A DNA stretch of 64,000 nt from a virus (IMGVR_UViG_3300037067_027616:64001-128000); one strand, 5' to 3'; counted from the stretch's first letter, positions 8,865-14,835 are shown. The notes: generated by a model from the letters alone, not told the origin. A program made the numbers and translations.

Positions 8865-9131
8865 TTACCTATTGCGAATGACACCAAACCACCCTTGAGT
8901 TTGGGAAATTTTTTTGCCCTTTGCCTGTTGTACGGTTCTTTTAGCCCGAACTATGCGGTGGCGTTCCACGTTTTTGGCGCGGCGCAATATTTCCACGACC
9001 CTTTGTGCCCACGGGAGCCTACGTGCAGCCTCACGCCTAACGCCAGCGTCATCTGCATCGCAAATGGAATCCGCGACGAATGCGAACCCTTGTGGTGCCT
9101 CGATTTCCGCCCAAAACTCCTTGCCGTTCAT
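8865..9131 (-). CDS. cassette ORF, hypothetical
   Basis: GGAGGT RBS; bounded by GTTGTAG (9172) and GTACAAC (8927). Confidence 0.6.
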   Translation of the reverse strand: MNGKEFWAEIEAPQGFAFVADSICDADDAGVRREAARRLPWAQRVVEILRRAKNVERHRIVRAKRTVQQAKGKKISQTQGWFGVIRNR

Positions 9132-9165
9132 GCCACCTCCTATGTGCATTTGCACTGCTCATGGC

Positions 9166-9600
9166 CTACAACGCTCGGATTGGTAAATCCCCTTCAACAC
9201 GATCAAGGTTGCTGAGCAGATTATCTTTGATGCAGGCGTGCAGATGGGGATTGTCGAGAATGTCCTTGCGGATAGCCTCGGCGCCTTCACCGACATATTG
9301 GAGTTTCTCACGTATAACCCATGAGCCCTCGGCAGAAGATCTTTTTAGCCAAGGTTTTCCAATACAATCTTTGCGATGCCCCCGGAGGATTCTCAAAAGA
9401 GATGCCCTTAACTCTTTGCGGACTTCTTCTTGGTCACGGTCGAGCTTCTGTATCCTCCAGCAGAAGAGGGAGTCTATATTCTTAATACCCAAAGGGGTGT
9501 ACGCGGCAAACACGCCCCCTCCACTGACCATTGCTTGATCAATGTAGAGTTCTTCAACTGTAGCTGGCATCAGCGGGAGAGACATTTGAAGGCATTCCAT
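9166..9600 (-). CDS. hypothetical protein within array
   Basis: GAGGT RBS; stop codon lies in the GTTGTAG core. Confidence 0.6.
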   Translation of the reverse strand: MECLQMSLPLMPATVEELYIDQAMVSGGGVFAAYTPLGIKNIDSLFCWRIQKLDRDQEEVRKELRASLLRILRGHRKDCIGKPWLKRSSAEGSWVIREKLQYVGEGAEAIRKDILDNPHLHACIKDNLLSNLDRVEGDLPIRAL

Positions 9601-9611
9601 GATTACCTCTG

Positions 9612-10007
9612 TTATTTGGGTTTGCCTGTTTGGTTCCGTTGCTGAACATACTCCACAAACTGATTGATAAACTGAACGTAACTACCAGATGCTCCAACAA
9701 ATTTGATAAACGACTCGGCAAGTTCAACAATGGCATCCCTTGCATTGTTGGTGGCAGTGATCTGCTTTTGGGACGCCACGCCTGCTGCTTGCGGTTCAAG
9801 TGTCACGGTTGGCGTTGTACGATGGTAGTATACCCCCAGTTTGGCCGCGTGCTTTGACATCAGATCGCCAACGAAACACCCTAGTCCGTTGAACCGCTTA
9901 ATGCGCCACCCGCATGAACATTTTTCTCTGCCAGAACCATTCCCGCCACGCTCGCATTCACTGCATGCTACCCACAGCCTGTCTCTCGAATCGCGATAGC
10001 TTCTCAC
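9612..10007 (-). CDS. cassette ORF, Cys-containing hypothetical
   Basis: ORF reading through a degenerate site (CACCAAC at 9747-9753). Confidence 0.55.
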   Translation of the reverse strand: MRSYRDSRDRLWVACSECERGGNGSGREKCSCGWRIKRFNGLGCFVGDLMSKHAAKLGVYYHRTTPTVTLEPQAAGVASQKQITATNNARDAIVELAESFIKFVGASGSYVQFINQFVEYVQQRNQTGKPK

Positions 10008-10055
10008 GTTCTCTCGCTTTGAACGCGGCCACTACCGTATGTGTGGCCGACTGTT

Positions 10056-10120
10056 GTACAACGTCTGCGCTAAACGGACGCTGGCTTGCTTTGAATCTGG
10101 CGTTCCTTTAGCTTTTGTGC
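10056..10120 (-). repeat. attC-like site (degenerate R'')
   Basis: + strand gtacaac..gctaaa c ggacgc / gcgttcc tttagc t tttgtgc. Confidence 0.7.
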
Positions 10121-10351
10121 GAAGTGAACTTGGCTCTCCTTAATTGGCCGTGAATCCACCCACTGTATATGAATCGGAAAACACGGAACAAGACAAATCC
10201 ATACTTCCACCAATTTACAAATTGGCAACGAAAAAGATGGTGCGCCTTGTGGCATACACGTTTCACCACTGCGCCAAAATACGCCAACCCACATATCTGC
10301 CAATTTGTATTCTAAACAAATGTTGAGCATAAATATCCTTTGAAAAATCAC
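10070..10351 (-). CDS. cassette ORF, hypothetical
   Basis: ORF ending inside the attC-like arm. Confidence 0.55.
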   Translation of the reverse strand: MIFQRIFMLNICLEYKLADMWVGVFWRSGETCMPQGAPSFSLPICKLVEVWICLVPCFPIHIQWVDSRPIKESQVHFAQKLKERQIQSKPASV

Positions 10352-10381
10352 GGCCTATGACTCAAAAACCAAGGCCATTTT

Positions 10382-10462
10382 GCACAACGTCCGCCGCACT
10401 CGCCCGAAGCGCGGTACACTATTTTTTATTTTTCACCGCGTTTTGGGCTGCGGCTGTTGTGG
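10382..10462 (-). repeat. attC-like site
   Basis: gcacaac gtcc gccgca ctc gcccgaagcgcggt / accgcgttttgggc tgcggc t gttgtgg. Confidence 0.85.
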
Positions 10463-10700
10463 GTTGGCTTTCCATATTTTTATTCCGAACCTCCGCCGCG
10501 ATTTTGCATCCCTCAACATGGCAAAAATCGTCAATATGGCAATCGAAACAGCACGTCAAATTCGGACACGCGCTTTGAACAACTTGATAAACCTCATCGC
10601 CGAATTTCTCTAGCAAGCTATTAAGAATAAAAGTTACCATGCGAGAGTTTTCGTGCATGATAATCTGACAATGGTTACAATCCCTGTCACATAATTTCAT
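10419..10700 (-). CDS. cassette ORF, Cys-rich hypothetical
   Basis: AGGAG RBS; stop inside hairpin loop. Confidence 0.6.
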   Translation of the reverse strand: MKLCDRDCNHCQIIMHENSRMVTFILNSLLEKFGDEVYQVVQSACPNLTCCFDCHIDDFCHVEGCKIAAEVRNKNMESQPTTAAAQNAVKNKK

Positions 10701-10751
10701 TTTTATTTTCTCCTAGTGGAGGACTATAACTCAATTATTCTGCCAGGACGC

Positions 10752-11141
10752 TCAAAATATCTTTCCGCCGTGCATGTACTCACGGTTACGATTGAACTCG
10801 ATTTTAGCAACGATGGCTTCTGCCACTTTCCAACCACGAGCCACGGCAACATCCATGATTCGAATAACCACATCAGCCAACTCCTCCTCAACAGCCGAGA
10901 ACTCGCCAATGTGCTCCGATGGTGGGTTGCCATGGCGGAGCCCTTCCAACGCCTCGGACAATTCAGACACCATAAGCATGAGCAACTCGCCATTGTTGCG
11001 GTCGCCCTTCCACCACCCCTTTGATACGGCAATTTCTTGCACGGCGGCGGCTATAGACTCCCATTGATACACAAATGCTTCTTTACTCACGATGAGCCTA
11101 CTTTCTTTCCCCGGCCTATCACGCCAGAGCGCGGTTTCCAC
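10752..11141 (-). CDS. MazG-like nucleotide pyrophosphohydrolase
   Basis: SELSEALE...EEELADVVIRIMD...KIEFNRNR motifs; true start may be the downstream GTG at 11090. Confidence 0.85.
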   Translation of the reverse strand: METALWRDRPGKESRLIVSKEAFVYQWESIAAAVQEIAVSKGWWKGDRNNGELLMLMVSELSEALEGLRHGNPPSEHIGEFSAVEEELADVVIRIMDVAVARGWKVAEAIVAKIEFNRNREYMHGGKIF

Positions 11142-13699: not shown

Positions 13700-13951
13700 G
13701 CCTGTACAAGACAACCGAACAGACATGACGCAATAGCCTGCCGGAATGCCAAACTGGCCGCCATCCACCTTGTACACCACTTCGACCGCCACTTCGCGGC
13801 CAGAGTATTCGCAAATTGACGGTGACCACTCCCGCAAACGCAGAGTGTCCCCGACAGCGTAATGGCGGTCGTCCTTCCGATACTCAAACGTCTTGACTCC
13901 ATCCACCATGTGCTGAAACACCGACGGCCAAGTCTTCAATTCGTGCAACAT
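13574..13951 (-). CDS. cassette ORF: DUF3850/ASCH-like domain plus zinc ribbon
   Basis: HELKTWP..F....G.KTFEYRKDDR.YAVGD.L.LREW; C-terminal CDH...CIKC. Confidence 0.8.
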   Translation of the reverse strand: MLHELKTWPSVFQHMVDGVKTFEYRKDDRHYAVGDTLRLREWSPSICEYSGREVAVEVVYKVDGGQFGIPAGYCVMSVRLSCTGVQQTQSAIPACDHQWTPIENKHVIGWEICIKCRMCRPVQQA

Positions 13952-13973
13952 AACTGCTCCTCCCGTGTATGGC

Positions 13974-14044
13974 GTACAACGTTCACTGCATGGCGAAGTG
14001 GTGTTTTAACCATTTGCAAAGCGAACGCCATGCAGTTGTTGGGC
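13974..14044 (-). repeat. attC-like site
   Basis: gtacaac gttc actgcatggcg / cgccatgcagt t gttgggc. Confidence 0.88.
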
Positions 14045-14156
14045 GATGTAATTTTTTGCCATATTGATAGGCAATAACTTCAACCGCCTCGTTAAGTCCG
14101 ATTGGAATACCTTGTCGCACTAGGTCGCTCAACTTTTCCAATCTATCATCAACCAT
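13983..14156 (-). CDS. cassette ORF, 57 aa (not in the ORF track)
   Basis: GGAGGA RBS; MVDDRLEKLSDLVRQGIPIG...HHFAMQ*. Confidence 0.6.
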   Translation of the reverse strand: MVDDRLEKLSDLVRQGIPIGLNEAVEVIAYQYGKKLHRPTTAWRSLCKWLKHHFAMQ

Positions 14157-14178
14157 AATTCCTCCAAAAAATTATTTC

Positions 14179-14316
14179 GCCCAACGTATGCTAAACGGCT
14201 GACAGTTGCCGCAACTTAGCACAAAAAGAGTTGGTTACATCACTATCGCACTTCCACGAACCTTTAGTTTGATACTCATTAACGACTGCGGCAATTTCAG
14301 CCTTTAGCTGTTGTAG
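14179..14316 (-). repeat. attC-like site
   Basis: gcccaac gtat gctaaa c ggctgacagttgccgca / tgcggcaatttcagcc tttagc t gttgtag. Confidence 0.88.
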
Positions 14317-14439
14317 GCCCGTTGTTTGCGACTCCGCCTCTTCCAGAGTTTTTATGGACAAGTCCACAGCCTCCGAAAGCATAATACGACCATGAGGATA
14401 GTTGCTCTTGAGAACCGCAATCGCTTCTTTATTGTCCAT
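14191..14439 (-). CDS. cassette ORF, hypothetical
   Basis: AGGAGG RBS; N-terminus similar to the ORF at 14503-14745. Confidence 0.65.
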   Translation of the reverse strand: MDNKEAIAVLKSNYPHGRIMLSEAVDLSIKTLEEAESQTTGLQQLKAEIAAVVNEYQTKGSWKCDSDVTNSFCAKLRQLSAV

Positions 14440-14473
14440 AAAAACCTCCTATGAATGGTTCGCAAACTATGGC

Positions 14474-14616
14474 CTACAACGTGTGGCAAAGGGTTGATGC
14501 AATTAAACGCTATAGGCCCCGCACCTATGACCACAACGTTTACCTCCGGCATAAGGACAGCTTTCAGTTTTACGACAGATGCTGCGTTTAATTGTTTCAC
14601 CCTTTGTAGGTTGGTG
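14474..14616 (-). repeat. attC-like site
   Basis: ctacaac gtgt ggcaaagggttgatgcaattaaacgc / gcgtttaattgtttcaccctttgt..gttggtg. Confidence 0.82.
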
Positions 14617-14745
14617 GCCCGTGGCCGCTTGCGCCTGGGCCGCCTCGACATCTGCAATGGCAATATTTAACGCTTCGCGCAAACCACCATATCTCTCGTC
14701 AGGCCAATTTGCCTTGATTAACCGTACAGCTTCTGCCCGTTCCAT
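14503..14745 (-). CDS. first cassette ORF, hypothetical with Cys-rich tail
   Basis: GAGG RBS; EA..LIKANWP..RY..LREAL..AI. Confidence 0.65.
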   Translation of the reverse strand: MERAEAVRLIKANWPDERYGGLREALNIAIADVEAAQAQAATGHQPTKGETIKRSICRKTESCPYAGGKRCGHRCGAYSV

Positions 14746-14774
14746 TTAATCCTCTCCGGCCCGCAGGCCATGGA

Positions 14775-14835
14775 CACCAACTATACGTATGATGAAACGC
14801 CTTTGTGTAAGACTTTGACTTTTATAGCTTTGATA
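14775..14835 (-). other. putative attI-like insertion site
   Basis: GTTGGTG at 14781-14775 complements the first cassette's CACCAAC but has no upstream hairpin; preceded by AT-rich AAAGTC direct repeats. Confidence 0.5.

Follow-up and report, generated by a model that had tools for sequence, protein, structure and literature searches.

Integrons are regarded as bacterial devices defined by the integrase IntI and its special domain, an insertion held to be essential for recombination of hairpin (attC) sites. Their integrase gene is mostly divergent from the cassette array, and classical sites, as represented by attC(aadA7), have approximately 5 versus 6 unpaired nucleotides, with extrahelical bases on the R''-L'' (coding-strand 5') arm. 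An attC site consists of imperfect inverted repeats (R''-L''...L'-R') with an unpaired central spacer and extrahelical bases (PMC5371416). Clusters of attC sites lacking integron-integrases (CALINs) were described in phages by Qi et al. 2023, who called them with IntegronFinder and HattCI at a minimum of two predicted sites per cluster; the sites were canonical attC recombined by IntI1 (PMC9892861). The locus described here lies in a 64,000-nt stretch of viral DNA (IMGVR_UViG_3300037067_027616:64001-128000, hereafter the window), taken from a 466,729-bp IMG/VR virus record that is labeled as a provirus and has a completeness estimate of 98%. Between two conserved genes it carries approximately 6 kb of small co-oriented open reading frames (ORFs) with 13 imperfect hairpin sites (YAAC...ACGTTR) and at least four remnants of such sites. 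With a probability of about 80%, we read it as a recombinase-less, partly decayed array of mobile cassettes, that is, a phage-borne, CALIN-like analogue of the integron.

Several features are shared with classical integrons. Promoterless cassettes with small genes in one orientation each carry an imperfect hairpin with AAC/GTT ends and with variable arms and centre, the site lengths are bimodal, exchange maps to G/TT (a slash marks a cassette boundary throughout), and a cassette's first bases are complementary to the distal site of that same cassette. In phage relatives of the system, though not in the window, the array is headed by a tyrosine recombinase and a junction with a -10-like box.

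All plausible genes from 8837 to 14835 are on the minus strand; there are 17 of them, encoding 57-188 aa. A first-pass annotation, made from the sequence alone, had proposed an integron-like array of about 16 short co-oriented ORFs separated by 13 attC-like hairpins with AAC and GTT ends, plus half-sites near 8927, 9172, 9747 and 11230. The co-orientation was correct, all 13 hairpins are present on the gene strand at the positions proposed, and the four half-sites are readable in the sequence; the ORF count was low. The ends are as described at most sites, which start with YAAC and end with (A)CGTTR, except that one starts with AAA and two have degenerate cores (ATGTTG at 12324, GATG at 11981). 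In the common fold, YAAC is followed by 1 nt, a stem of about 6 bp, a second stem of 4-5 bp, an AAA-type internal loop, a third stem and a variable centre. The return arm is complementary, with 1-3 extra bases, and ends in a 4-5-nt spacer and (A)CGTTR. When DNA folds of the 13 sites were compared with dinucleotide shuffles, 10 had z-scores of -1.4 to -3.6, and the mean z of all sites was -1.7. The check proposed earlier, that the hairpins should be more structured than shuffled sequence, thus holds for those 10 and fails for the other 3.

These features are concentrated in the array. We scanned for YAAC and GTTR 45-180 nt apart, scoring local complementarity of 30-nt arms. At a score of at least 22, there were seven sites in the 467-kb genome, six of them at 8-20 kb of the window; at a score of at least 18, density was approximately 1.6 sites/kb in the array versus 0.043/kb in 582 kb of related phage DNA. 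The heptamer ACGTTGT is also clustered. Ten of its 15 copies in the window are on the minus strand within 10058-14539, and no other 5-kb bin of the genome has more than three, so that the array is its sole cluster.

If exchange takes place within the core, as in integrons, whatever follows GTT is part of the next cassette and should pair with that cassette's distal site. This is the pattern found. The 8 nt after the GTT of one site and the 8 nt before the AAC of the next were complementary at 5.33 of 8 positions on average; against its own R'' a site scored 3.15 and against the remaining sites 3.3, and none of 100,000 permutations reached the observed sum (p < 1e-5). For 78 adjacent pairs in 15 arrays the value was 4.09, versus 2.96 for own R'' and 2.81 for random pairings (p < 5e-5). 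Exchange would fall 5' of the fourth base, because site 13559-13699, which shows the chain complementarity on both sides, has R' GTTAGAC and its own R'' is GTACAAC.

A shared cassette breaks at the same place. The cassette at 12624-12324 recurs at 77% identity in the 44-kb contig of an unrelated phage (L009), where the homology extends from ACGTTG to the next A(C/T)GTTG and the neighbors on both sides are unrelated. The start of the L009 copy pairs perfectly with its R''; the window copy is mutated in the R' extension at 12616 and in its core, ATGTTG. A second pair of cassettes is shared in the same manner by two other contigs (L023 and L161). The chain complementarity and the shared cassette indicate, at the level of sequence, that exchange is at the ACGTT core.

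This footprint also bears on another view, in which the hairpins are expression signals (terminators, RNase sites or elements of translational coupling) or selfish palindromic repeats at gene ends. They do mark the 3' ends of ORFs, share the orientation of the genes and would also fold in mRNA. However, T-tracts are lacking, and the number of terminator-like sites (7) does not exceed expectation (7.1), nor are promoter-like motifs in excess. No Rfam family or tRNA was matched, Rfam having no attC family. Expression signals would not make the 3' flank of one site complementary to the 5' flank of the next, and they leave unexplained both the whole, core-bounded cassettes in unrelated phages and the conserved junction downstream of recombinase genes described below. 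We consider this view very improbable.

The PeSL (promoter/stem-loop) elements of T4-type phages, which are thought to shuffle by homologous recombination at repeated promoter/stem-loop sequences, are similar in that recurrent stem-loops flank small accessory genes of hyperplastic regions, and these genes move from phage to phage. Unlike the sites described here, they lack the AAC/GTT core, the chain complementarity and a dedicated recombinase.

The arms of the sites co-vary. MAFFT alignments of sites of unequal length were poor in the centre, and for this reason we relied on our own scanner and on a count of pairs in a fixed structure. In a sequence-only MAFFT alignment of 47 long sites, with a fixed 18-pair structure and 500 shuffles, 73% of cells were paired (a figure raised by the way the sites were chosen; see below) versus 58.5% in shuffles and 30-44% in slid controls. 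Double-sided changes numbered 105 versus 39 in shuffles, and no shuffle reached either observed value. The same can be seen by eye in a relative of site 13231-13293 in contig L013 (82% identity over 68 nt), in which the loop is the same and the stem sequences differ yet stay complementary.

The first-pass annotation had treated the hairpins as separators between ORFs, and this proved too simple. ORFs run through the sites, so that the 5' halves, and in long sites the whole centre, are coding, and the stop codon is usually in the 3' arm; site 11981-12123 lies entirely within a fused ORF. It could be argued that the arms encode a C-terminal module common to the proteins (such as QQLKAEIAA...RQLSAV), which selection on the proteins maintains and whose palindromy is incidental. 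Long sites are indeed translated: in 48 of 58 the frame that is open over R'' stops within 30 nt of GTT, and several centres encode CxxC...CxxC. A tblastn search with ORF 14191-14439 matched the tail alone, in eight viral contigs of 10-138 kb. Such tail-only matches arise because both site arms are conserved at the nucleotide level and the centre is free, and this conservation of the arms includes synonymous positions. The AAC core occurs in all three codon phases (40, 35 and 23 of 98 sites) and, by eye, the arm motif GCAGCCCRAAA is in different frames in three window sites. The presence of the core in all phases means that the sites are DNA-level elements that are also translated. Together with the pairing kept by covariation and the short sites that lie partly outside any ORF, this leaves the protein-module explanation with very little probability, although the tails may matter to the proteins as a secondary effect. 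Recombination sites translated into protein tails are unusual, and they may constrain or diversify the cargo proteins.

Sites of the same kind are widespread among phages. The arms of site 14179-14316 are kept at the nucleotide level, as an exact arm pattern, in 16 stretches from 15 other viral contigs, and the scanner found arrays of like sites in most of those 15. One of them, L015, is a complete phage of 213 kb that bears terminal repeats and has 17 sites or more. Site lengths are bimodal, with one group at 49-85 nt and a sharp mode at 129-130 nt. At 77 of 97 sites, unpaired bases are more numerous in the coding-strand 3' arm than in the 5' arm, and the spacer is modally 1 nt in the 5' arm and 4-5 nt in the 3' arm. 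Some window arm types are identical to types found in the recombinase-linked arrays of L161 and L168, with the ACGTTR...MAAT end and the polarity shared as well; the arm type of site 11716-11856 is one that also occurs in L161. These sequence patterns show one site family that forms arrays in many unrelated phages. An exact scan for the commonest arm in one representative genome each of 185,579 bacterial and archaeal species gave zero matches. A looser R' pattern gave, among the matches listed, single chance hits and, by the scanner, no arrays. The family was thus not found in bacteria by the scans run, and it may still be present there.

The closest competing explanation is an ordinary CALIN, with true attC sites made and serviced by a host IntI and with cassettes from a host chromosomal integron. 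A CALIN is defined as two or more consecutive attC sites without an integron integrase in the vicinity; the window has 13 attC-like sites in a genome without a recombinase. Like the published phage CALINs, the array is an integrase-less cluster of attC-type sites with small accessory genes in a phage genome. The AAC/GTT cores, bipartite imperfect hairpins, bimodal lengths (49-85 and about 130 nt) and cassette-boundary footprint are all attC traits, and most of the array-bearing phages examined here have no recombinase at all. Published attC sites range from 57 to 141 bp with only three conserved nucleotides (PMC5371416), and phage CALINs whose attC sites are active with IntI1 are already on record (PMC9892861). 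Against this, the geometry differs from that of classical sites, with a spacer of 1 versus 4-5 nt and the extra bases on the coding-strand 3' arm. Coding frames continue across the sites and terminate in the 3' arm. The family occurs on phage contigs and formed no arrays in the bacterial and archaeal genomes scanned, and it includes its own recombinase, which is Xer-like, co-oriented with the array and without the IntI insertion. An ordinary CALIN is therefore unlikely, if less so than the two explanations discussed above. The earlier claim of an integron-like array with attC-like sites is supported by the footprint, the arm covariation, the core-bounded shared cassette, the insertion and the recombinase linkage in other phages; the sites depart from canonical attC in spacer geometry, bulge polarity and coding overlap.

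The recombinases linked to this site family (P0001-P0033) share 43-100% identity and are 266-293 aa long. The enzyme aligns end to end with the archaeal XerA (4a8e). Its alignment with VchIntIA (2a3v) is broken in two, and between the pieces 37 aa of the query stand against 87 aa of IntI, from which we conclude that the IntI-specific insertion of approximately 50 aa is absent. The enzyme is also below the cut-offs for integron integrases (TIGR02249, 125 bits versus 265; PRK15417 likewise). In contrast to the mostly divergent integrase genes of classical integrons, the phage gene runs in the direction of the array and its end falls a few bases short of the junction. In L161 the 268-aa enzyme ends a few bases before ...TATAATAAGAA/GTTG..., the array runs in the same direction, and its first R'' matches the junction. 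The same arrangement, namely a stop codon, TATAAT or TATAGT, and (AACTA)/GTTG with a cassette-type extension, is found in L161, L162, L164, L166 and L168. The junction thus lies right after the recombinase stop in five of six contexts and is followed by an array in three (L161, L162 and L168); L164 is truncated by its contig end, and L166 has two weaker sites approximately 1.1-1.7 kb downstream. One contig without the recombinase (L012) keeps the junction. The left half of the junction is conserved and the right half is cassette-like, which places exchange at the R' (3') end of the sites.

A recombinase gene and junction at the array head, as in L161, L162, L166 and L168, are absent from the window and from the genome. 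The earlier observation that the window has no tyrosine recombinase was borne out, and it extends to the rest of the contig: the whole 467-kb genome has no PF00589 match, no P0001-like protein and no serine recombinase. Where a classical integron has an attI site and Pc promoter beside its integrase gene, the window has a promoter-like -10 hexamer (14785-14780) that overlaps the first cassette boundary, with no recombinase gene beside it. This boundary, TATAG/TTGG, falls between 14781 and 14780, and the bases past GTT pair with R'' of site 14474-14616. The surrounding left junction, CGTATAG/TTGG, resembles the CGTATAAT or CGTATAGT .../GTTG junctions after recombinase genes. Because no tyrosine or serine recombinase is encoded in the 467-kb phage, the array is best described as a recombinase-less stockpile, the analogue of a CALIN.

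Each cassette combines a ribosome-binding site and a small ORF with an imperfect hairpin site. The Xer-like recombinase would excise cassettes as circles by site-by-site exchange and insert them at the junction, and by analogy with integron integrases it probably acts on folded single strands. A comparable case is CTXphi, whose whole genome is integrated when the host XerCD recombines the attP hairpin at dif, exchanging only one pair of strands. There too the substrate of a Xer-type tyrosine recombinase is a hairpin that a single DNA strand forms, but in the present system many small cassettes are delimited by the sites and the phage supplies the enzyme. In the window, the array would be read from the promoter-like site at 14809-14780. 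It may have been acquired from a co-infecting phage, a prophage or the host, or be serviced in trans only by one of these, and it appears to be decaying slowly. Signs of decay are the degenerate cores, the fused ORF that holds site 11981-12123, and the half-sites in 8865-10056 and 10462-11429. The phage stockpiles cassettes and probably cannot capture them alone. The first-pass annotation had proposed a cassette-capture platform for stockpiling small genes; the stockpile is there, and the platform in this genome is incomplete, partly decayed and without a recombinase.

Several points weigh against the reading as an integron analogue. Three sites (10056-10120, 11429-11561 and 13559-13699) are not more stably folded than their shuffled versions. 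Of 16 virus records checked, counting this genome, only 2 have a tyrosine recombinase; in both the enzyme gene adjoins the array. None is present in the complete genome of L015, which has 17 or more sites. Since most array phages have no recombinase, the link to the enzyme rests on six gene contexts of one family, and in one of the six (L167) the R'-like core is approximately 60 nt past the stop, with no -10-like box and followed by opposite-strand genes and no array. The likeness of the window's left junction to CGTATAGT spans only about 8 nt. The sites used for covariation and polarity were picked by arm complementarity, which inflates the pairing percentage and not the register agreement. 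Finally, cassette exchange is known here from comparing sequences, and no recombination event was observed.

A broader proposal is that phages of approximately 44 kb to 467 kb share a pool of cassettes by means of an integron analogue of their own, with a minimal Xer-like enzyme devoid of the domain considered essential for attC recombination, sites that encode protein tails, and enzyme-less arrays that are serviced in trans during co-infection. We regard this as an even bet. Full-text searches turned up no account of phage cassettes served by a Xer-like recombinase. If the proposal is correct, the chemistry of integrons has multiple origins or is older than the IntI insertion, and phages own a route for swapping small accessory genes, possibly including anti-defence genes, across unrelated lineages. 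The sites would also mark exchangeable cargo among small phage ORFs of unknown function. In addition, the system makes an old question testable, namely, whether a Xer-type recombinase without the IntI insertion can recombine folded hairpin sites.

Table 1. Features of the cassette array and its flanks in window coordinates. Sites are numbered along the gene strand; z, fold z-score.
Feature	Positions	Strand	Details
Upstream flank gene, conserved	14836..15396	-	phrog_1383, PHROG 'virion structural protein'
Whole cassette array	8837..14835	-	17 small co-oriented ORFs and hairpin sites, between two conserved genes
Promoter-like site	14780..14809	-	TACACA-18-TATAGT; -10 hexamer overlaps first cassette boundary
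Site 1, long class	14474..14616	-	z -1.77; scanner score 32; centre encodes Cys-rich tail
Site 2, long class	14179..14316	-	z -1.67; widespread QQLKAEIAA...RQLSAV arm type
Site 3, short class	13974..14044	-	z -2.25
Site 4, long class	13559..13699	-	z -0.04; weak stems; R' GTTAGAC
Cassette ORF	13574..13951	-	DUF3850/ASCH-like RNA-binding domain (Pfam 4.9e-26, residues 3-77; phrog_986) and site-encoded tail
Site 5, short class	13231..13293	-	z -1.41
Site 6, short class	12914..12984	-	z -1.65
Site 7, long class	12616..12766	-	z -3.57
Site 8, long class	12324..12458	-	arm type of site 2; core decayed to ATGTTG
Site 9	11981..12123	-	z -2.67; degenerate R' (GATG); inside fused 188-201-aa ORF
Site 10, long class	11716..11856	-	z -2.02; centre encodes CxxC...CxxC tail
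Site 11, long class	11429..11561	-	z 0.17 (weak); scanner score 21; CxxC...CxxC tail in centre
Remnant, R''-like	11221..11240	-	AAAACAAC; matches R' extension of site 11
Cassette ORF	10752..11090	-	MazG-like pyrophosphatase; phrog_3301, 2.5e-27
Site 12, short class	10382..10462	-	z -2.90
Site 13, short class	10056..10120	-	z -0.72; R'' decayed to CAAA
Remnant, 5' half-site without 3' arm	9727..9753	-	within ORF 9612-10007; arm type shared with L028
Remnant, R'	9161..9174	-	CGTTGTAGGCCAT; overlaps stop of ORF 9166-9600
Remnant, terminal 5' half-site	8905..8936	-	distal array end
Downstream flank gene, conserved	7652..8836	-	phrog_2087, function unknown

The array is an insertion in a variable spot, since its two flanking genes are adjacent in related contigs. 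The upstream gene has homologues in 80 metagenome contigs. In 14 of 14 related contigs tabulated (49-78% identity), the homologues of the two flank genes are 64-705 nt apart with no site between them, which makes the 6-kb array an insertion between two genes that are conserved side by side in relatives. Arrays are absent from the IMG/VR relatives found via the flank genes (L001-L006), and blastn of the array against 50,697 GenBank phage records gave zero matches. In some of the related contigs (L170-L187) a small Cys-rich ORF occupies the gap of 64 to 705 nt, a spot that seems to attract small insertions generally. G+C content is mostly 0.42-0.51 in the first 23 kb of the window, array included, with one 1-kb bin at 0.58, and it is 0.50-0.60 from 24000 to 64000; GC skew is strongly negative at 30-39 kb.

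A number of other recombinase genes and gene contexts were noted. A distant homologue of the linked enzymes (P0035, 33% identity) was considered and set aside, as it had no sites of the window type adjacent to it. All-against-all comparison of the ORFs of four genomes (G000, G001, G002 and G003) gave two families present in three of the four and no candidate recombinase. In L008, a different tyrosine recombinase of 373 aa with a weak Xer-like match (7887-9008, equivalent to 886-2007 of L160) lies just downstream of a small, co-oriented array of the same site family. The Xer-like gene directly follows a recombination and replication module in L162 (442-6295) and L166 (5126-6654). This module encodes a RecT or Rad52-like annealing protein, a PD-(D/E)XK nuclease and a RecQ-like helicase, functions that make or handle single-stranded DNA. 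The first cassette past the junction in L168 (6920-7720) encodes an RtcB-like RNA ligase of 266 aa, far above the typical cassette size. In L161, the first unit past the junction (8815-9020) is a near-perfect inverted repeat of approximately 45 nt per arm with no convincing ORF, and may be a structured RNA or a regulatory element.

Few of the array ORFs belong to a named family, and two of them have the phrog_30902 N-terminal domain in common. No relatives of the DUF3850 cassette protein were found in viral contigs. Read by eye, the centres of four long sites encode Cys-rich tails on otherwise unrelated small proteins: CxxC...CxxC at 11429-11561 and 11716-11856, a Cys/His-rich tail after the DUF3850 domain at 13559-13699, and a Cys-rich tail at 14474-14616. 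Pfam gave one weak zinc-ribbon match.

Elsewhere in the genome, the scanner's sole strong match outside the array is in the 138-144 kb bin. Far from the array, a lone ORF at 142216-142515 of the contig (minus strand; 78216-78515 in window numbering, beyond the window's end) has a site-encoded tail of the same type as ORFs 14191-14439 and 12336-12740. It may be a solitary cassette, and is perhaps the element matched by the scanner.

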